Shown piece by piece: positions 21,831-34,166 of a DNA stretch of 64,000 bases. The stretch lies in the NCBI GenBank assembly GCA_965226795.1, contig CBDDDZ010000002.1:224001-288000 (forward strand), in the 5' to 3' direction. The first letter of the stretch is position 1, and every line of letters starts with the position of its first letter. The DNA comes from Candidatus Latescibacterota bacterium (GTDB taxonomy: Bacteria > Latescibacterota > UBA2968 > GCA-2709665). The notes beneath the pieces were generated by a model that was given only the letters and a program-made list of their open reading frames with translations, did no database searches and was not told where the DNA came from. Position numbers and translations under genes: made by a program.

Positions 21831-22154
21831 TAAACACATTAGAGGGCGATAGAAATCCCTACTCCCCCACCGGGCGGTCGTGTGGTAGACCGCGAAGGAC
21901 CGATGTGTGGATTTGGGCTTGGACCGCGTTTTTCCGATTGCTGTTGTCGCATTTTGCGACACCCGGAAGCAAGGGCGTCGTGCCCGTGCAAACGTTGTGC
22001 CGTATAGCAACGGGTTTTCGCTGGTTTTAGGCTGACTGCTGTACGCTGATCGCTGAAAACTGACGGCTTCTTACGTCTCCCGTCTCCCTACTCACCCGGT
22101 GGCCACGGGGTGGAAGGGCGGTCTGTTTCCCGGGGGTGGATGCGTGAGGTGTTT

Positions 22155-23282
22155 ATGACGACGACCTTATACAGAACGATCACCTTTCTTGCAGTGCTGA
22201 TTCTTGTGGCCGCATGCGGAGGGAAGGAACAACCCGCCGCCCCAGAGCCGCCGCCTGCCGAGACGACGGGTGGCAACATCCAGCAGAACAGACCCCTGCT
22301 TTCGGACGACAAGTTCGGTGCCGACTCGAATCCTACGGGCAATCCCATCGGAGGTGGAGACGGATACAATCAACGGGTCGAGGAGTACGACTATTTCGTT
22401 ACGAACCGCACGGAACTCCTGAACGCGCTCAAGCAGGCGACCGGGGGCCAGGTGGTCTATCTGGCGGACACTGCCAGGGTGGACCTTACAGGCGACCGGA
22501 ACATAGAGATCCGCGCGGGCGTCACGCTGGCCAGCGGGCGGGGCAAGCCCGATTCCGAGGGTGGCCTGGTCTATTCCAAGGAACTGGAGACGATTCCACT
22601 CTTTCTCGTCACTGGTCCCGACGTTCGCGTTACCGGGCTCAGGCTGGAGGGCCCGGACACGATGAGACGCACCGAGCAGATGAAGCAACTCCTGTCGGAA
22701 GGCCGGCAATTCAGTATCCCCAACTCCCGGGGCATTCAGACCGCACATCCCAGGCTCGAAGTGGACAACTGCGAACTCTGGGGTTGGACCCACGCCGCCA
22801 TTTTCCTCCGGGCGAATTCAACGGACAACCACGTCCACCATAACTATTTCCACCACAACCAGCGCCACCATATGGGCTACGGCGTGAATTTGGACCGGTC
22901 GGAAGCGCTGATTGAAGCCAACCTGTTCGACTGGTGCCGGCACCATATCGCCGGTACGGGCAGGCCAGGCACGAGCTACGAAGCCCGCTACAACCTGGTT
23001 CTCGAAAACGCCAACAGCCACAGTTTTGACATGCACGGCGGCCGGGACCGGGATGACGGAACGGATATCGCCGGCGACGTCATTCTCATTCATCACAACA
23101 CGTTTCTGGCTATCGACGTGGAGGCCGTCGTCATCCGGGGGATTCCCCAGGAAGCCTGTGAGATTTACAACAACTGGTTTATCCATTGGCTCCCGGCTAC
23201 CGCTGTCAGACAGGCATACGCCACGGGTAATCTACGGCTCTATTCAAACCAGTACACGCACAACCGGCTCGTCAAGGACTGA
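22155..23282 (+). CDS. Lipoprotein with right-handed beta-helix (pectin lyase-like), copy 1
   Basis: GAGGT RBS; lipobox LVAAC; repeated HHNYFHHN, IEANLF, IHHNTF strands. Confidence 0.85.
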   Translation: MTTTLYRTITFLAVLILVAACGGKEQPAAPEPPPAETTGGNIQQNRPLLSDDKFGADSNPTGNPIGGGDGYNQRVEEYDYFVTNRTELLNALKQATGGQVVYLADTARVDLTGDRNIEIRAGVTLASGRGKPDSEGGLVYSKELETIPLFLVTGPDVRVTGLRLEGPDTMRRTEQMKQLLSEGRQFSIPNSRGIQTAHPRLEVDNCELWGWTHAAIFLRANSTDNHVHHNYFHHNQRHHMGYGVNLDRSEALIEANLFDWCRHHIAGTGRPGTSYEARYNLVLENANSHSFDMHGGRDRDDGTDIAGDVILIHHNTFLAIDVEAVVIRGIPQEACEIYNNWFIHWLPATAVRQAYATGNLRLYSNQYTHNRLVKD

Positions 23283-23473: not shown

Positions 23474-24601
23474 ATGACAACGACGTTGTACAGAAAGCTG
23501 ATGTGTCTCGCCGCTTTATTTCTGATGGCGGCATGCGGCGGGAAAGACAAATCCGCCGCGCCGGAGACGCCGGACGGCGGTTCGGGAAATGGCAACACCC
23601 AGCAGAACAGACCCCTGCTTTCGGACGACAAGTTCGGCGCCGACTCGAACCCCACGGGCAATCCCATCGGCGGCGGAGATGGGTACGATCGGCTTGTCGA
23701 TCGACACGACTACATGGTTACGAACCGGACGGAACTACTGGACGCGCTCGAACGGGCGGGCGCGGGCGAGGTCGTCTATCTCGCCGACACCGCGAGGGTG
23801 GATCTGACGGGCGACCGGAACATCGAGATCCGCGCGGGCGTCACGCTGGCCAGCGGGCGGGGCAAGCCCGATTCGGATGGGGGCCTCGTTTATTCCAAAC
23901 AACTGGAGACCCTTCCGCTCTTCCTCGTTACCGGGGCCGACGTACGCGTGACCGGCCTCAGGCTGGAGGGCCCGGACACCATGAGGCGCACCGAGCAGAT
24001 GAAGGAGCTCCTTGCAGTCGGGGAGTATTACAGCATTCCCAACTCCCGGGGCATTCAGACCGTACATCCCAGGCTCGAAGTGGACAACTGTGAACTCTGG
24101 GGCTGGAGTCACGGCGCGATTTTCCTCCGGGCCAATTCAACGGACAACCACATCCACCACAACTATTTCCACCACAACCAGCGCCATGGCCTGGGTTACG
24201 GCGTGGTTATGGACCGATCCGAGGCCCTCATCGAGGCCAACCTGTTCGACTGGGGCCGGCACCATATTGCCGGCACGGGCAGGCCCGGCACGAGTTACGA
24301 AGCCCGCTACAACCTGGTTCTGGAAAACGCCAACAGCCACAGTTTCGACATGCACGGCGGAAGGGACCGGGACGACGGAACAGACATCGCCGGCGGCCTC
24401 ATTCTCATTCATCACAATACGTTCATGGCCGTCGACGTGGAAGCCGTGACAATCCGGGGCATACCCCAGGATATCTGTGACATCTACAATAACTGGTTTA
24501 TCCACTGGCTCCCGGCTACCGCAATCAGACAGGCCTACGCCACGGGAAACTTGCGTCACTACTCAAATCAGTATACACATAATCGAGTCGTAAAGGACTG
24601 A
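23474..24601 (+). CDS. Lipoprotein with right-handed beta-helix, copy 2 (tandem paralogue)
   Basis: Lipobox LMAAC; nearly collinear with copy 1. Confidence 0.85.
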   Translation: MTTTLYRKLMCLAALFLMAACGGKDKSAAPETPDGGSGNGNTQQNRPLLSDDKFGADSNPTGNPIGGGDGYDRLVDRHDYMVTNRTELLDALERAGAGEVVYLADTARVDLTGDRNIEIRAGVTLASGRGKPDSDGGLVYSKQLETLPLFLVTGADVRVTGLRLEGPDTMRRTEQMKELLAVGEYYSIPNSRGIQTVHPRLEVDNCELWGWSHGAIFLRANSTDNHIHHNYFHHNQRHGLGYGVVMDRSEALIEANLFDWGRHHIAGTGRPGTSYEARYNLVLENANSHSFDMHGGRDRDDGTDIAGGLILIHHNTFMAVDVEAVTIRGIPQDICDIYNNWFIHWLPATAIRQAYATGNLRHYSNQYTHNRVVKD

Positions 24602-25440: not shown

Positions 25441-27342
25441 ATGCCCGAAACCAAACCGACAATCAGGAAATCGAGTCAGCTCTCGCTATCCATTAACGGG
25501 AAACCCGCGCCCACCCCGAGGTCGTCCGGCAAGCGCAACAATGGCGCATCGCCAGAACACGGGTACGATGAGTCCAAAGTCAAGACGCTGAGTTCACTGG
25601 AACACATTCGCCTCCGAACCGGCATGTACATCGGCCGTCTGGGCGATGGATCCAATCCGGATGATGGCATCTACGTCCTGCTCAAGGAAGTCATCGACAA
25701 TGCTGTAGATGAATTTATTATGGGTTACGGAAAAAAGATTGACGTCAGCATCGAAAACAACCGGGTCCGGGTTCGAGACTACGGCCGCGGCATTCCCCTC
25801 GGCAAAGTCATCGACTGCGTTTCCACCATCAATACCGGCGCTAAATACAACGACGATGTCTTCCAGTTCAGCGTGGGCCTCAACGGCGTGGGAACGAAGG
25901 CCGTCAACGCCCTCTCTTCAGATTTCAGGGCGGTTGCCTTTCGTGACGGAAATTACTTCGCAGCGCATTTTGAACGAGGGCGTCTCAAAGGGAAAAAGGA
26001 GGGTCGGAAGCCCGGCGAACCCGACGGATCCTATTTCGAGTTTCTGCCGGATGTAAAGATTTTCGGAGAAGACTTCGCGTTCAATTTCGACTATGTCAAA
26101 CAGCGGATGTGGAACTACGCCTGCCTGAACAGCGGGCTTTCGCTGGTTTTCAACAAGGAGCGCTTTGTATCCAGAAACGGACTGCTGGACTTCCTCACCC
26201 GCGAAGTCGGCGAGTCGGCTCTGTATGAACCGCTTTATTACAAATCTCAATACCTCGAGTTTGCCTTTACCCACACGGTCAGCTATGGCGAAACGCACTT
26301 CTCGTTCGTCAACGGCCAATACACCAGCGACGGCGGGGCCCACCAGAGCGCCTTCCGCGAGGGCATCCTCAAGGGCGTGAATGAGTTCTACAAGAAGAAC
26401 TTCAACGGTATCGACGTGCGGGAGAGCATCTCGGGCGCCGTGGCCGTCAAACTCAAGGCCCCTGTCTTCGAGTCCCAGACCAAGAACAAACTGGGGAATA
26501 CGGATATCCGGGGGTGGATTGTCACGGACGTCAAGAGCGCCGTGGTCGACCTCCTCCACAAGAACCAGACCGCGGCCCGGCGCCTGTCCGAGAAAATCGC
26601 CCAAAACGAACGGTTGCGAAAGGAACTCAACGCCGTCAAGAAAGAGGCCAAGGAGGCCGCACGGAAAATCGCAATCAAGATTCCGCATTTCAAAGACTGC
26701 AAATACCACCTGGACCACAAGAAACACGGCGAAGACTCAACCATCTTCATCACCGAAGGCCCATCCGCGGCTGGCTCCATGGTCGCCTCGCGCGACGTCT
26801 ACACCCAGGCGATCTTCGGCCTCAAGGGCGTTCCTCTGAACGTATTCGGCAAGAACAAGGCAGCGGTGTACAAGAACGAGGAACTGTTTAACCTCATGAT
26901 GGCGCTCGGCATCGAAGACGGCATCGAAAATCTGCGTTTCAACAAAATCGTTATCGCCACCGATGCGGACCATGACGGCTACCATATCCGGTACCTGCTC
27001 CTCACGTATTTCCTGAACTACTTCGAGGAACTGGTGCTGGCCGGCCATCTTTATATTCTTGAAACCCCGCTTTTCCGCGTGCGAAACAGCAAGGTCACCC
27101 GCTACTGCTACAACAATCGGGAGCGCGACAGTGCCCTGGAGGATATCAAAAATCCCGAAATCACCCGCTTCAAAGGCCTCGGGGAGATCTCGCCCAAAGA
27201 ATTCGGGCAGTTCATCGGCGACGATATTCGACTGGTCAAAGTCAATATCAGGTCCATCTCCGAAATCGCCGATATGCTCAGTTTTTACATGGGCAAGAAC
27301 ACCCCGGAACGCAGGGACTACATTATCGAAAATCTGATCTGA
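25441..27342 (+). CDS. parE: Type IIA topoisomerase subunit B (topoisomerase IV ParE-like)
   Basis: EHIRLRTGMYIG, EVIDNAVDE, GLNGVG, FESQTK, TEG.SA, ATDADHDG, RFKGLGE. Confidence 0.88.
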   Translation: MPETKPTIRKSSQLSLSINGKPAPTPRSSGKRNNGASPEHGYDESKVKTLSSLEHIRLRTGMYIGRLGDGSNPDDGIYVLLKEVIDNAVDEFIMGYGKKIDVSIENNRVRVRDYGRGIPLGKVIDCVSTINTGAKYNDDVFQFSVGLNGVGTKAVNALSSDFRAVAFRDGNYFAAHFERGRLKGKKEGRKPGEPDGSYFEFLPDVKIFGEDFAFNFDYVKQRMWNYACLNSGLSLVFNKERFVSRNGLLDFLTREVGESALYEPLYYKSQYLEFAFTHTVSYGETHFSFVNGQYTSDGGAHQSAFREGILKGVNEFYKKNFNGIDVRESISGAVAVKLKAPVFESQTKNKLGNTDIRGWIVTDVKSAVVDLLHKNQTAARRLSEKIAQNERLRKELNAVKKEAKEAARKIAIKIPHFKDCKYHLDHKKHGEDSTIFITEGPSAAGSMVASRDVYTQAIFGLKGVPLNVFGKNKAAVYKNEELFNLMMALGIEDGIENLRFNKIVIATDADHDGYHIRYLLLTYFLNYFEELVLAGHLYILETPLFRVRNSKVTRYCYNNRERDSALEDIKNPEITRFKGLGEISPKEFGQFIGDDIRLVKVNIRSISEIADMLSFYMGKNTPERRDYIIENLI

Positions 27343-27451: not shown

Positions 27452-29341
27452 GTGGCATACGTCGACACCTTGTACGAAAAATATTATCTCGAGTTTGCGT
27501 CCTATTCCATCAAGAACCGGGCGATCCCCAACATCGACGACGGCTTCAAGCCGGTTCAGCGGCGCATTCTGCACGCCCTGTACGAGATGCACGACGGCAA
27601 GTACCACAAGGTCGCCAACGTCGTGGGCCAGACCATGCGGTACCATCCCCACGGCGACCTCTCAATCTTCGGCGCCCTCGTGAACCTGGCCAACAAGGAA
27701 TTGTTCATCGACAGGCAGGGCAATTTCGGCAACATCTTCACCGGCGACGAAGCCTCTGCCGCACGCTATATCGAATGCCGCCTCACGCCACTTGCAAGAG
27801 AGGTTGTCTTCAACCCCGAGATAACCGAATACGAAGACTCCTACGATGGTCGCAACCGTGAACCGATCGCATTTCCCGCCAAAATCCCGGTCCTGCTCGC
27901 CATTGGCTCAGAGGGCATTGCCGTCGGTATGACCACCCGCATTCTCCCGCACAACCTCATCGAACTGCTCGAAGCGCAGATTGCCTGCCTGCAGGGCAAA
28001 CCCTTCGGGGTCCAACCCGACTTTCCCACAGGGGGCCTGGTCGATGTTTCCGAATATAATGACGGCAACGGGAAGGTTCTCGCCCGCGCCAGACTGGACA
28101 CCAGAGATCCGAAACGCATCGTCGTGCGCGAACTACCCTACGGCACGACAACCGAAACCCTCATTGCCTCCATCGAAGACGCCACCAAAAAAGGCAAACT
28201 CAAAATCACGGGTATCAGCGATTATACGACCGATCAGGTGGAAATAGAAATCCAGCTCGCCCGCGGCGTGCATACCAAGGACACCGTTCACGCGCTGTAC
28301 GCATTTACGGACTGCGAAACGTCGATATCGACGAATCTGCTGGTCATACAGGACAACCGGCCGGAAATTACGTCCGTGACCGAAGTGATCGAATACAACA
28401 CCGGCCGCCTCGTGGAGATTCTCAGGACCGAACTCAAACTCGAGGAACGTCAGCTGACCGCGCGGCATCACGCTAAAACCCTTGAACAGGTCTTTATTGA
28501 AAATCGCGTTTACAAAAGCATCGAAGAGGAGACCACCTCCGAGCGTGTCTACCGTGCGGTGTTCGACGGGTTGAAACCCTACCAGGAGAGCATCAGGGGG
28601 GAAGTTTCACGGGAGGACGTGGAAAACCTGCTCAGAATCCCGATCAGGCGCATCTCGCTCTACGATATCAACAAAGCCGAGGCGGAAATGCAGGATATTC
28701 GCACGCGCCTCAGGGAGGTCCGTGCCGACCTGCGCGGCATGCAGGCGTTCGCCGTTGCGTTTCTCGAGGGCCTCATTGAGAAATATCGCAACGACCACCC
28801 CCGTAAAACCGAGATCACAAGCATCCAGAGAGTCGACGCTCGGGAGGCCGCCCAGCGCAATCTCAAGCTGCGATACGACAAGAATACAGGTTATCTGGGC
28901 CACCAGGTCAACGGCGGCGCCCTTTTCGACGTGTCGCCGTACGACCGCGTTCTGGTGATCCGAAAAACCGGCATGTACTCCGTTGTGGACGCCCCCGAAA
29001 AGCTCTTCGTGGATAGGGGCATGCTTTTCTGCGGTTTCGTGGACGAAGACCGCGTCTACAATCTTCTCTACAAGGAGAACGAAACCGGATATCTCTACAT
29101 AAAACGTTGCAAAATCGACAGATTCATCCTGAACCGGGGGTACGAATTGGCGCCCGAAGGCTGCCGAATCCTGAAACTCACCACCGACTCCGACCGTGCA
29201 ATCCGGGCCCACTTCAAACCCAAACCCCGGGTGAGAATCACAGAAGAGGAATTCGTCATCGCAGAATATCCCGTTCGCGGCAACAGGGCCAGGGGCATTC
29301 GTCTCGCCAACCGCGAAGTCCAGACCGTCAAGTTCATCTGA
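27452..29341 (+). CDS. parC: Type IIA topoisomerase subunit A (short ParC-like)
   Basis: DGFKPVQRR, YHPHGD, QGNFG, AARYIECRL (catalytic Tyr), GIAVGM, PDFPTGG; 629 aa, no canonical GyrA box seen. Confidence 0.88.
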   Translation: MAYVDTLYEKYYLEFASYSIKNRAIPNIDDGFKPVQRRILHALYEMHDGKYHKVANVVGQTMRYHPHGDLSIFGALVNLANKELFIDRQGNFGNIFTGDEASAARYIECRLTPLAREVVFNPEITEYEDSYDGRNREPIAFPAKIPVLLAIGSEGIAVGMTTRILPHNLIELLEAQIACLQGKPFGVQPDFPTGGLVDVSEYNDGNGKVLARARLDTRDPKRIVVRELPYGTTTETLIASIEDATKKGKLKITGISDYTTDQVEIEIQLARGVHTKDTVHALYAFTDCETSISTNLLVIQDNRPEITSVTEVIEYNTGRLVEILRTELKLEERQLTARHHAKTLEQVFIENRVYKSIEEETTSERVYRAVFDGLKPYQESIRGEVSREDVENLLRIPIRRISLYDINKAEAEMQDIRTRLREVRADLRGMQAFAVAFLEGLIEKYRNDHPRKTEITSIQRVDAREAAQRNLKLRYDKNTGYLGHQVNGGALFDVSPYDRVLVIRKTGMYSVVDAPEKLFVDRGMLFCGFVDEDRVYNLLYKENETGYLYIKRCKIDRFILNRGYELAPEGCRILKLTTDSDRAIRAHFKPKPRVRITEEEFVIAEYPVRGNRARGIRLANREVQTVKFI

Positions 29342-29423
29342 ACCCGATACCGGTGTCAAGACAGAAGCAGGATCGGACGCGCCTCCGTTTTTGTCTCCCG
29401 GCGTCACGGAAAAAGAGACCCAT

Positions 29424-30188
29424 ATGCCAACGAAACCCATTGCCGACCTCCTCGACCTTTCCGGACAGGTCGCCATCGTCACCGGCGCCAGCCGGGGCAT
29501 CGGCAAAAGCATCGCCGAGGTCTTCCACCAGGCGGGGGCCAGCCTCACCCTGGTCGCGCGCAATGCCGGTCCATTGGAGGCGGTCGCCGAGACGCTTTCG
29601 GCCAGCGGGGACGTGCTTGCGGTTCCCGCCGACGTCGCGGACGAGACACAGATCAACGCCTTCGTCCAAAAAACCGTAAAGACGTTCGGCCGCGTCGACA
29701 TTCTGGTGAACAACGCGGGCCTGGCCAGCCCGGGTCGCTATACCGGCGTCGACCTGGGCGAGTGGCAGCGGGTGATCGGCGCCAACCTCACCGGCGCATA
29801 TCTCTGCTGCCTCGCCGCGGCCCCCCACATGGAAAAACAGAAAAGCGGCCGAATAATCAACATCTCCTCCATCAGCGGCCAGACCGGCGGCGTCTCCGGC
29901 GGGGTCCACTATGCCAGTTCCAAGGCAGGTATGCTGGGCATGACCAAAACCCTCTCCCGGGACCTGGCCACGAGCAATATCACGGTCAACGCCATCACCC
30001 CGGGCGTGATCGAAACCAGCTTTCAAATTTCTCCCGAAAGCCGCAGCAGAATCAACGAACTTATTCCAATGGGCTATATCGGGCAGCCCGAGGAGATCGC
30101 CTACGCCGCCCTTTTCCTGGCCTCCCGGATGGGCGCGTATATCACCGGCGCCACGATCGACGTGAACGGCGGCCTCCTGAAGCGATAG
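29424..30188 (+). CDS. Short-chain dehydrogenase/reductase (FabG-like)
   Basis: TGASRGIG, NNAG, YASSK. Confidence 0.92.
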   Translation: MPTKPIADLLDLSGQVAIVTGASRGIGKSIAEVFHQAGASLTLVARNAGPLEAVAETLSASGDVLAVPADVADETQINAFVQKTVKTFGRVDILVNNAGLASPGRYTGVDLGEWQRVIGANLTGAYLCCLAAAPHMEKQKSGRIINISSISGQTGGVSGGVHYASSKAGMLGMTKTLSRDLATSNITVNAITPGVIETSFQISPESRSRINELIPMGYIGQPEEIAYAALFLASRMGAYITGATIDVNGGLLKR

Positions 30189-30227
30189 TGGAGTACGCCG
30201 CATCGTATTTCAATTCTCCGATCGTAC

Positions 30228-30445
30228 TGCCGGTGGTGTGGGGGCTTTTCCGCGCTAATCCGTTCAGCAACAGGTTAATGGAACACCAGAGAACTACGAA
30301 GGCCACTAAACCAGGTATACGCCCCTTGGGGTGATTCGCGGAAAAGCAGCCCCGCGGCGTTTGAGCGGCGCCCTTCTTTTTCGCCCTTTTTCTTGGGCGA
30401 TGCAAGAAAAAGGGCAAGGGAATAGGGGACGTTTGGGGGTGGTGA
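30228..30445 (-). repeat. Structured intergenic module, copy F
   Basis: GCCCTTTTTCTTG/CAAGAAAAAGGGC hairpin; GCTTTTCCGCG/CGCGGAAAAGC arms around an 82-nt core. Confidence 0.85.
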
Positions 30446-30537
30446 AGACTCTAACTCACGGGCGCTGCGAGGCGGGATGAATCGGCGGAAGAATCATGGC
30501 AGGTTTCAGGGAGTTGGACACTGAAAAGGAGATGGAC

Positions 30538-31728
30538 ATGACAGCTCAAGAAGCGAAATGGACGCCTGGTCCCGGAACGATTGAATCTCTACTCTCGCGG
30601 ATCAAGTCAAAACCCGAGGAAGTTCGGTGGACAGACATCGCCTGGGAAACCGACCTCTGGAAAGCCCGACGGCGCGCGGCTGCCGTGCGCAGACCGCTGT
30701 TTATCTGGGCGATGAACGGCAACCCGCTCGGTTGCGTCTGAAACAACGGTATAGCGGGCCGTGAGTCCGTTTTCTCCCATCCCGATGTAATCCGCACCCT
30801 CAACGAATCTTTCATATCCGTTGCGGATAACTGCAGTTATACCCAGACACAGAAAGACGCCAAGGGCGAATTCTTCCGCCTCGTGGCCGAACAGGGCCAT
30901 TACGGAGGCCGCACCCAACCCACGGCAACCCGGCAGGGCCTGTACGCCTGCACGGCGGACGGCGAGTTGCTGGGGTCCATCAACACGAGGGATGCGGGCC
31001 CGTTTCTGGATCTGCTCGAGCGGAGCCTGGCAAAGTGGCGAGAACGCCCGGACAACGGCGCAGCGGGTGAAATCCCTGAAACCTATCCCATCGATCCCAG
31101 ACTCGGATGGTCCTATCCGGAAGACGGCCTGGCGCTCAAGGTCACGGTTCGCGACCTTCCGAGGAATTCCGAAGACGTCGACACACGGCACAACATCGAC
31201 TTCGCGTGGTTTACCGAAGAGGAGGCCGGGTCTCTGGTGCCCGGCAATGCCCGGCCCGGCCAGACGTATCTCGCGCCCGGCTATTTTACCAGGCGTCTCG
31301 CCCTGCGTCACTTCATCGACACGGTTCGCGGGCAATCGCCCGGATGGCGGGAAGAAAACCTGAAAGACGGGGAGATCCGCATGACCGTGGAATCCTCCGA
31401 AACAGACTGCATCCGGCTCCACCTGGAGGGACGCATCCACCTCGAGGCGGAACCCACGCTCGAGACCAATCCCTTCAGCGGCCTTGCCGTGGACAAGCCC
31501 CGGGGCCTGAACCTGAGCCTGTACGGCCGCCTGGCGTTCGATCCGCGCCAGCGGCGCGTCGAAGCCTTCGATGCCGTGGCGACTGGCTCCCGCTGGGGCT
31601 GCACGACCTACAATGTGCGCTTCGACGACCCGGGCCCCGCGCCCATCGGCTTCGCCTTCGAACGCGGGTCGGGCGATCCCATCGAACGCACCCCTCCCGC
31701 GGCCCTGGGGCCGAGGTACTTTGCTTAG
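30538..31728 (+). CDS. Probable selenoprotein (396 aa, CxU motif, thioredoxin-like N-terminus); UGA at 30739-30741 read as Sec
   Basis: ORFs 30496-30741 and 30883-31728 are in the same frame and separated only by TGA: PLFIWAMNGNPLGCV*NNGIAGRESVFSHPDVIRTLNESFISVADN; AAGGAG RBS. Confidence 0.8.
30753..30771 (+). promoter_or_regulatory. Bacterial SECIS-like hairpin
   Basis: AGCGGGC-CGTGA-GTCCGTT; loop starts 18 nt after the UGA, with G at loop position 2. Confidence 0.6.
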
Positions 31729-31876: not shown

Positions 31877-32058
31877 CACAATGACTTGTCGAGGCGTTGA
31901 GGAAGCGGGTTTGAAGATGGGGCAGACATTCCTGTCTGCCCTTCTAACGGTCCTTCCGAATCCGCGGCCAAGGGGGAGTAGGGGCAGGTTTGAAACCTGC
32001 CCCTACGGTTGGAGCATCGAAACGAATGGATATGAGCAGACAGGAATGTCTGCTCCAC
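31877..32058. repeat. REP doublet with nested GTAG palindrome
   Basis: Same arms as 12235-12400; GTAGGGGCAGGTTTGAAACCTGCCCCTAC at 31978-32006 in the spacer. Confidence 0.8.
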
Positions 32059-32204
32059 CCTCTCAACCATATGTGCACCGAGTCGAAATATCGTGAATGC
32101 CGTTTTATCTGTTTGGATATCCCATAATTGGTGGCCCCGAACCCGCCGCGGACCAGAGCACTGTGAGTGATATCCATTTTTCGATATTCTGTATCTGCGA
32201 CCAT

Positions 32205-34166
32205 CTATGGTCTCTCTATTCTGAACCTCGTCTCCAGCACGTCGTCTCCGCTTCCACCGAACGGCACCTCGAGGAGCCACGGCGCGGTTTGTCCGCGGCG
32301 GTGGGCGTTCGGTCGCAGCCATTTGACGTTCCGCCGAAGCTTCGTCGTCCCCAACCTTTTGCTATCGAAGTCGATCCCGACTGCCACGTCCCCGCAAACC
32401 GCACGAAAGCCGCCGGGCGAGCCCGTGACCTCGACACCGTAGTCGAAATGGAAGAGGGCTCTGTGGAACTTTCTGCTCTCGCTTCGTGCGCTGTCGGTGA
32501 GCTGCCATTCGTTGCGTGATCCGAGACGTATTTCGCGCGACCATGTAACGCCGCCTGTGGTCTTCAGCGTTCCCCTCATTACCGATTCCGTGCCGACGCG
32601 GAGCGAACTTTCCACCGAAGCGGCAGCGACGCCCCAAACGTCGACGAGATCCTCGGGGCGAGACCTTGGCTGCCCATCGGTGAGAACGACGGACTTGGAT
32701 AGGTCGGAATAGGGATAGCCCCGAGCCGGCTTTCCGCGGTGCCGGGATCCGTTGACATGGATGTAGAGTTCGTTCGACGGGAGCCACAGGATCGGCACCC
32801 CACGGGCCAGGAATGTGATGCCAAGGGTGTCGTCGTGCGCGTGCCCGGTTACGTCGCACTCCCCGTCCGGGATGTTCAGAGTGATGGCGGTGGCGTTCCT
32901 CTTCCAGGAACTGCGGACAACGGCGATGCCGGTTGCTGGCAGCCGGACACCGCCGGGAAGCGAGGGCCGAGGTTTCGCGGAACGTGCCTGCAGCAAGGGA
33001 GGCAGGTGACGGTTCAGTCCCAACCGCTGAAGCACTTCACCGCAGATTCCACTGTCCAGCGCGAAGCTGCCCAGGCCGAGGAGACTCGCCGTCGCCGGTG
33101 CCGCGGGAGGCTCACCGTCCCCTACCGGGGGAAGATGGCCCGAGGGCAGGACCGTGAGCGCCATCTGCTCTGCGGCCCGACGTATGACCTTGCGGTCTTC
33201 GGCGTCCATGAGCCGCACACGATTCAGCTTTGCGACCAGGAGCGGCGCGAGAAACATTTCGAGCGTGACCATCGCATAGCTGCCGGACCGCTCGACGTAA
33301 CAGCCGTCCGAAAGGAAGCTTCCCGCCGCATGGCGCTTCAGATTCCTTCGGGCCAACGTCGACAGGCGTTGAAGTCGCGGCGTCTCGGGGAAGTACATCG
33401 CCATAACCGCGGGAACGTTACAGGTCCGCATGATGTGGTGGTTGTTGCGCGCGTAGGGCGAATTTTCGAAGTGGATGTAGGCCGCGGAAGTGAACCACAT
33501 GGCCTTGATGAACGCGAAGGCCGTGTCGACGGGGACCTCCGGTGCGAATACGATCCCGCTCTGGATACAGCTGATCCAGTTGAAGAGCCGGTGGCCGCTC
33601 GGCATGGACTTCTCTCCGGTGGAACGGCAGAAAATCATGTCTTCACCTGTGAATTCCGGATCGAGTCTGAACGGCCAGTCGGTCACCCAGCGGGCGGCGA
33701 ACTCGGCGAACTTTGCGGCGTATGCACCCTCCCGGGAGGCGGCGTGGGCGATGGCGAGATCGCGCATAAAGGGACAACACTTGAAGGTGTTGCCCGGCAC
33801 AAAAAGACTGAGCGTATCGGGCGTGACCCAGTCCAGGTCCCTGCCGAACCGGAGTTCCATCCCCGGCGACATAACAAGTATGTTCCGAAGCGCGAGATCG
33901 GCGCGCGCCGTGAAATCCTCGATATCCGGCCGGAGTACCGGGGGCCAGAGATGACGCACTTCGCCCCTTCGTCCATCCCGAAGGTCGCACAGCCATCGCG
34001 GGGACCGGCGATTTCGGAAATGGTTCACAAACTCCGATCGTGCAGCGTCGAGGTCGCCTTTATCGACAAGAGAGGGGACGCGCCGGAGCTCTTCGGACGA
34101 TCCCTCAAACTCGAGGAGGAAGTCGCGATCCGAGAATTCGGTCAGACTGCGCGGAAGTTCAGTCAT
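32205..34166 (-). CDS. Heparinase II/III-like protein
   Basis: NNH, FLSDG.YVE.SGSY, P.VGD, HAHDD.L motifs; helical domain followed by beta-sandwich. Confidence 0.8.
   Translation of the reverse strand: MTELPRSLTEFSDRDFLLEFEGSSEELRRVPSLVDKGDLDAARSEFVNHFRNRRSPRWLCDLRDGRRGEVRHLWPPVLRPDIEDFTARADLALRNILVMSPGMELRFGRDLDWVTPDTLSLFVPGNTFKCCPFMRDLAIAHAASREGAYAAKFAEFAARWVTDWPFRLDPEFTGEDMIFCRSTGEKSMPSGHRLFNWISCIQSGIVFAPEVPVDTAFAFIKAMWFTSAAYIHFENSPYARNNHHIMRTCNVPAVMAMYFPETPRLQRLSTLARRNLKRHAAGSFLSDGCYVERSGSYAMVTLEMFLAPLLVAKLNRVRLMDAEDRKVIRRAAEQMALTVLPSGHLPPVGDGEPPAAPATASLLGLGSFALDSGICGEVLQRLGLNRHLPPLLQARSAKPRPSLPGGVRLPATGIAVVRSSWKRNATAITLNIPDGECDVTGHAHDDTLGITFLARGVPILWLPSNELYIHVNGSRHRGKPARGYPYSDLSKSVVLTDGQPRSRPEDLVDVWGVAAASVESSLRVGTESVMRGTLKTTGGVTWSREIRLGSRNEWQLTDSARSESRKFHRALFHFDYGVEVTGSPGGFRAVCGDVAVGIDFDSKRLGTTKLRRNVKWLRPNAHRRGQTAPWLLEVPFGGSGDDVLETRFRIERP

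Follow-up and report, generated by a model that had tools for sequence, protein, structure and literature searches.

The 64,000-nucleotide stretch of Candidatus Latescibacterota DNA analysed here (the window) holds a forward-strand frame of 396 codons and a TAG (30538-31728), whose sole internal stop is the TGA at 30739-30741 (codon 68, in the context G-N-P-L-G-C-V-*-N-N-G). A mechanical ORF list splits this frame into 30496-30741 and 30883-31728. The locus raises the question of whether these are two genes, or one gene whose UGA is read as selenocysteine (Sec), and in the latter case what its product might do.

Features of the locus:
30526..30531, + strand: Shine-Dalgarno-like AAGGAG, 6 nt ahead of the ATG at 30538 (from the sequence)
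30538..31728, + strand: single coding sequence of 396 aa with inferred Sec68 (from full-length homologues with one TGA)
30613..31053, + strand: thioredoxin-fold domain of the Trx7/UAS/DsbH/AGR subgroup, residues about 26-172 (predicted structure)
30733..30735, + strand: Cys66 of the C-x-U motif, common though not universal (66/72 aligned rows)
30739..30741, + strand: inferred selenocysteine 68, in-frame UGA (U-N-N-G), at the first-Cys position of the thioredoxin motif (from the conserved TGA and the model)
30753..30771, + strand: bacterial SECIS-type hairpin, 6-7 bp stem, -7.7 kcal/mol (covariation)
30760..30762, + strand: near-invariant Arg75 (U+7), R in 178/179 rows, whose CGT codon gives the loop G-U
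31090..31725, + strand: C-terminal beta-sheet domain (residues about 185-396), rich in conserved polar positions

One reading frame across the TGA

Translation bore out the claim of the initial annotation that the two ORFs form one frame interrupted only by the TGA at codon 68, and its count of 47 codons between the TGA and the second ORF is exact. An equivalent ATG and a length of 396 aa were found in 10 of the 13 other loci of the same genus, and nearly so in the remaining three. An assembly error at the TGA was considered and rejected, because contigs from several runs show no differing letter there: two RNA runs and one DNA run gave the same letters across it. A contig from a third RNA run spans 30528-31711, and none of the differences listed for it falls on the TGA. 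Several of the sequencing runs holding the stretch carry the label sponge metagenome.

As set out below, the 'stop' almost certainly encodes Sec, and the two 'hypothetical' fragments are therefore likely to be one 396-residue protein. A signal peptide was not seen by eye, and the window copy is probably cytoplasmic.

Conservation of the TGA among homologues

Matches to the window family occur in 44 of the 168 genomes of the window's phylum, and in 42 of these a copy is full-length with a single TGA; near relatives of the window genome are labelled Latescibacterota or Gemmatimonadota. The 30 phylum loci listed, among them that of the window itself, have no stop within the frame other than the one at codon 68. 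TGA also occupies the site in 58/58 GTDB loci, a set found by patterns downstream of the site and overlapping the 30 phylum loci; these are labelled Latescibacterota, Gemmatimonadota, Poribacteria, Chloroflexota, Planctomycetota, Bacillota, Akkermansiaceae or uncultured. Family matches were found in 103 of the 301 genomes sampled from the phylum to which a Planctomycetaceae genome belongs, and the 71 aligned Planctomycetota sites (30 loci listed plus 40 weaker regions picked from about 165 matches) comprise 67 TGA, one TGT (L265) and three other codons. The family amounts to 1,521 clusters at 50% identity (E <= 0.001).

Among 267 database proteins, 215 have their start immediately past the site and 21 extend across it, the latter with Cys (7), Trp (2) or other residues (12) at the site. 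One of the Cys forms, P0389, is full-length (429 aa). Another, P0034, groups inside the clade of the window protein (SH-aLRT 97, quick tree), a placement that suggests a change from Sec to Cys. The initial annotation had named Cys or a conserved TGA at this position in homologues as a check on its reading, and both occur: TGA is retained at 58/58 and 67/71 sites, and Cys stands in 7/21 spanning proteins.

These data also bear on the reading of the UGA as a true stop that separates two genes or marks a pseudogene. Gene callers do give two ORFs, and databases list the 81-aa upstream piece as a protein (P0252). Yet neither TAA nor TAG occurs in the 30, 58 and 71 aligned sites, continuous Cys forms exist, and the starts of database proteins past the site are scattered. 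Termination would furthermore leave the thioredoxin domain with no more than its first strand, and a covarying hairpin follows the codon. We regard a true stop as very improbable.

Selenocysteine machinery and decoding of the UGA

The initial annotation had named a genome without Sec machinery as grounds against its own reading. In this genome (G000, 95.9% complete), selA (E 7.5e-169), selB (E 2e-110) and the selC product tRNA-Sec are encoded side by side on contig C5, and selD, which carries its own in-frame TGA, on C4. In the window's phylum, selA was found in 41 of the 42 genomes that carry a TGA-bearing copy (the one exception has 80% completeness), and elsewhere in four of five genomes from other phyla; this co-occurrence is weak support, since selA is common in the phylum anyway (131/168 genomes).

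Decoding as Trp or another standard residue, by a reassigned code or leaky read-through, would account for the W at the site in P0051 and P0077, and Trp or Arg in homologues was another pattern that the initial annotation held to speak against Sec. Their closest loci, at 83% and 70% identity, carry TGA, however, and the W is therefore probably TGA translated under another code. In addition, many homologous genes have TGA as their terminal stop, the tRNA-Trp anticodon is CCA, and the only UCA tRNA found in the genome is tRNA-Sec. Such decoding is therefore extremely improbable, and none of the conditions that the initial annotation set for its own refutation held. P0051, P0077 and cluster members of 459 aa with Trp at the Sec site, probably the product of genes called with TGA as Trp, are a trap for homology checks.

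The hairpin downstream of the UGA

Positions 30753-30759 pair with 30765-30771 around the loop CGUGA (30760-30764). The seven pairs and the loop G of the initial annotation stand, whereas its distance of 18 nt is that from the UGA to the loop, the stem beginning after 11 nt. According to the available text of PMC13188914, the bacterial SECIS consensus consists of a 3-9 nt loop at 16-37 nt from the UGA, a G in the first two loop positions, and a stem of 4-16 bp at <= -7.5 kcal/mol; the window hairpin conforms to this consensus, with a 5-nt loop at 18 nt, G as its second letter and -7.7 kcal/mol. The UGAs of selD and formate dehydrogenase in the same genome have hairpin loops at +17 and +18.

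Taken alone, the hairpin lies within chance (five foldings gave z from -0.5 to -1.6), and a similar rule is passed by about 1% (224/21,608) of the open-flanked TGAs in the genome. Because a single hairpin is not beyond chance, the SECIS support is comparative. Over 47 distinct sequences, 95% of 282 cells of the six-pair stem are paired, with 40 double changes, against 30-47% in slid-pairing controls; 0/500 shuffles, which ignore relatedness, reach the observed covariation. Both pairs at third codon positions are paired in 56/56 distinct sequences, and the loop Arg codon is CGT in 57/58 loci, compared with 11.9% of the Arg codons in the rest of these genes. Synonymous recoding gave a mean of 4.1 pairs versus 5.7 observed; as the median per-locus p was 0.12, no single locus is decisive. 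In many Planctomycetota members the stem position is shifted; a stem of >= 5 pairs was found at 56/67 TGA-bearing sites there, compared with 0/4 non-TGA sites, while 11/67 TGA-bearing sites were without one under the rule used.

The locus and its family hold the features by which a bacterial selenoprotein is recognized, namely an in-frame conserved UGA, selA/B/C/D, SECIS geometry and Cys homologues, and according to our analysis of these sequences UGA codon 68 is almost certainly read as selenocysteine. By analogy with established bacterial Sec insertion, SelB would bind the mRNA hairpin and deliver Sec-tRNA to codon 68.

Domain architecture

The predicted structure of the 396-aa protein (pLDDT 93.5) consists of a thioredoxin domain followed by a beta-sheet domain, and supports the thioredoxin-like fold that had been proposed around the site. 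The large C-terminal domain, described earlier as uncharacterised, indeed yielded no clear match among solved structures, and the window protein had no hit in NCBIfam (June 2026) or Pfam. In the model Sec68 lies just before helix 71-79, and its distance to a conserved F equals that of the first Cys in the genome's DsbH-type CxxC protein. The earlier claim of a CxU redox site thus holds in placing Sec68 in a thioredoxin motif, but it is Sec and not Cys66 that takes the first-Cys position. L071, L218, L240, L253 and L261 are among the TGA-bearing members in which another residue stands in place of Cys66, and a few distant members, such as L246 and L263, have adjacent C-U. Position U+3 is Gly and not Cys (G71 in 71/72 rows). 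The thioredoxin domain also contains a conserved T-R-Q-G-x-Y segment (residues 131-136). For the cis-proline loop that faces the active site in classical CxxC oxidoreductases, possible counterparts by sequence and model position are T-R-Q-G, which precedes strand 134-138, and a conserved Pro at 128. Many polar residues of the family are near-invariant.

Comparison with known families

The nearest solved folds are Thioredoxin_7/DsbD-C/DsbH/AGR/UAS domains (PDB 3f9u, 2lst, 3ph9, 2ju5, 3ira, 2dlx), with 11-17% identity to the window thioredoxin domain. In contrast to CxxC thioredoxin domains, the window family has U-x-x-G with Cys at -2 and an extra beta-sheet domain of 210 residues; with U-N-N-G, the window protein falls outside the C/U-x-x-C of classical CxxC oxidoreductases. 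When 144 family members were compared with NCBIfam and Pfam models, none scored better than E 1e-4; PF13899 was touched by one member (E 0.03) and PF03190 (DUF255/DsbH) by none.

A Sec in a short redox-type motif is shared with VPGUxxT (NF041383), Trx7/PDZ (NF041199), TsoC (NF045708), TsoX (NF045809), Trx-like Sec.1 (PF13192, CxU) and deiodinase-like proteins, and most catalogued thioredoxin-like selenoproteins are, like the window family, built on a thioredoxin-like fold. No catalogued selenoprotein family model was reached at cut-off, NF041383 being the only one touched (3/144 members, best E 0.0033). The spacing P-x-G-x-x-U of TsoC is common to the window family; its 87-position model had no hit in the window genome. 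No matching entry was recognized in the 119-family list (PMC13188914, Table 1, in its available text), as judged by motif and model only. The family was not found described in the literature covered, which included the available portions of PMC13188914, PMC13326102, PMC4807772, PMC12839072, PMC9344019, PMC8967691, PMC8639696 and PMC12013277; Haft and Tolstoy (2025), Deng et al. (2026) or their supplements may list it. It is a well-supported, widespread selenoprotein family that seems to be uncatalogued.

Three further loci of the window genome (L194-L196, at C2:631474, C3:36900 and C4:896293) have an in-frame TGA in D-U-C-G-A-S-S-C with a hairpin loop at +19. They score 52-56 bits against UGSC_fam NF041046, short of its cut-off of 125, and so have the look of a variant subfamily of UGSC selenoproteins.

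Possible relation to selenoprotein N

In the phylum that includes a Poribacteria-labelled genome, 84 of 121 genomes carry the pattern D-[E/Q]-S-C-U-G-S-G, and the control gave one match. The genes concerned reach up to eight matches per genome, have no NCBIfam hit and can stand in tandem, as many as four in a row at intervals of about 1.15 kb (L134-L163, phylum of G171). From the SCUG motif and an Arg at U+7 that is invariant in the SCUG alignment, we take this Poribacterial family as SELENON-like. A Poribacterial SelN orthologue is reportedly the subject of an unpublished thesis.

Profile comparison of the thioredoxin domains of the window and SCUG families aligned U on U (probability 96.9%, score 64-65, 112-117 columns), versus 42-88% and scores of 30-40 for a shallower DUF255/DsbH control profile; whole-protein profiles gave 82%. 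Forty of 214 window-family members matched the SCUG profile at E < 0.01, compared with seven for DsbH. By these profile scores, the window thioredoxin domain is closer to the Poribacterial SCUG family than to DsbH. In both families U+3 is G and U+7 is R; they differ in motif (C-x-U-N-N-G in the window family) and in order, the Poribacterial proteins carrying the thioredoxin domain last, with Sec mostly at about 250-286, and the window family carrying it first, with Sec at 68 of 396.

For the beta domains, whose common register was first seen by eye, the first profiles aligned 23 columns at 4-5% probability, and a deeper profile aligned 97 collinear columns at 7%, above 150/150 short-block shuffles; long-block shuffles matched the scores of the earlier profiles. 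Since two beta-rich domains could share a pattern alone, this match in swapped order stays a lead and is only suggestive.

Animal SELENON (SEPN1) has its Sec in a thioredoxin-like domain, according to the available part of PMC8967691. Variants in patients are known at Sec462 and Arg469 (human R469Q), which gives the same U+7 spacing as R75. SELENON differs from the window protein in its SCUG motif, where the latter has G-C-V-U-N-N-G, in its membrane anchor and EF-hand, and in a C-terminal Sec domain (462 of 590 in human) that follows a large middle domain, while the Sec domain comes first in the window protein. No SELENON-type hit was obtained for the window protein in solved structures. We tentatively posit, at clearly less than even odds, that the window family is a domain-permuted sister of selenoprotein N with the same Sec-thioredoxin and beta domains in opposite order, animal SELENON being linked through the SCUG motif of the Poribacterial proteins and the U+7 Arg.

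Genomic surroundings

Upstream of the selenoprotein gene lie a short-chain dehydrogenase (29391-30188, +) and two genes that by eye read like type II topoisomerase subunits (25441-27342 and 27452-29341, both +), all syntenic within the genus only. Further upstream, a pair of lipoprotein-like ORFs (22110-23282, 390 aa, and 23474-24601, 375 aa, both +) lie in tandem and closely resemble each other. A convergent heparinase II/III-like protein of 653 aa (32205-34166, -) follows downstream and is not adjoining in most relatives. No conserved operon pointing to a pathway was found among the neighbourhoods of relatives. The intergenic stretches at about 30310-30460 and 31913-32062, the second of which contains nested inverted repeats (27 and 14 nt), show raised depth in all four runs and are probably multi-copy repeat elements. 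In a contig of run X17, the 339-nt intergenic 30188-30528 is replaced by 49 other letters, which places the dehydrogenase gene of that strain directly before the selenoprotein gene.

Proposed function

There is a good probability that this Sec-recoded gene encodes a two-domain, likely substrate-specific selenium-dependent reductase. As judged from fold and residue, the protein is probably a redox catalyst whose second domain selects the substrate. Sec68, at the predicted nucleophilic position of the thioredoxin fold, would attack an oxidised sulfur of the substrate (a disulfide or sulfenic acid). As U+3 is Gly and offers no second Cys, Sec would then be recycled by Cys66 or, in members lacking it, by a thiol from outside. 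R75, the T-R-Q-G segment and polar residues of the beta domain may bind a specific substrate.

A selenoprotein of this kind might instead be a redox or ligand sensor, with Sec68 as a switch and the beta domain binding a partner or small molecule, and not a turnover enzyme. P0153, P0163, P0173 and P0175 join both domains, as a complete module, to Ser/Thr kinase domains; three of the four have S, D or A at the site, and from these three together with the 12/21 spanning proteins without Cys or Trp there, it follows that the module can persist without redox chemistry. Also in favour of a sensor are the lack of a resolving Cys at U+3, the presence of UAS and AGR domains, which are non-catalytic, among the closest solved folds, and the description of SELENON as a sensor acting on a partner protein (PMC9344019, in its available text). 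Most members, however, stand alone without a conserved neighbour, Sec is kept at 67/71 and 58/58 sites, and the number of near-invariant polar residues is as expected of catalysis. We therefore consider a sensor unlikely and favour the reductase. One of the kinase fusions also carries Kelch repeats, and in other fusions (P0134, P0253) the module is joined to a PQQ-type propeller or a SecDF head subdomain.

Implications

With matches in 44/168 genomes of the window's phylum and 103/301 sampled genomes of the Planctomycetaceae phylum, the bacterial selenoproteome gains a large family, one that databases split almost everywhere (215/267 proteins begin after the site). Its natural Cys forms lend themselves to simple expression and assay. 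If the link to SelN is true, a permuted sister of this protein spans Planctomycetota, Chloroflexota, Latescibacterota and Poribacteria, and the family would provide soluble, membrane-free bacterial models, along with Cys versions, for the chemistry of a human myopathy protein.
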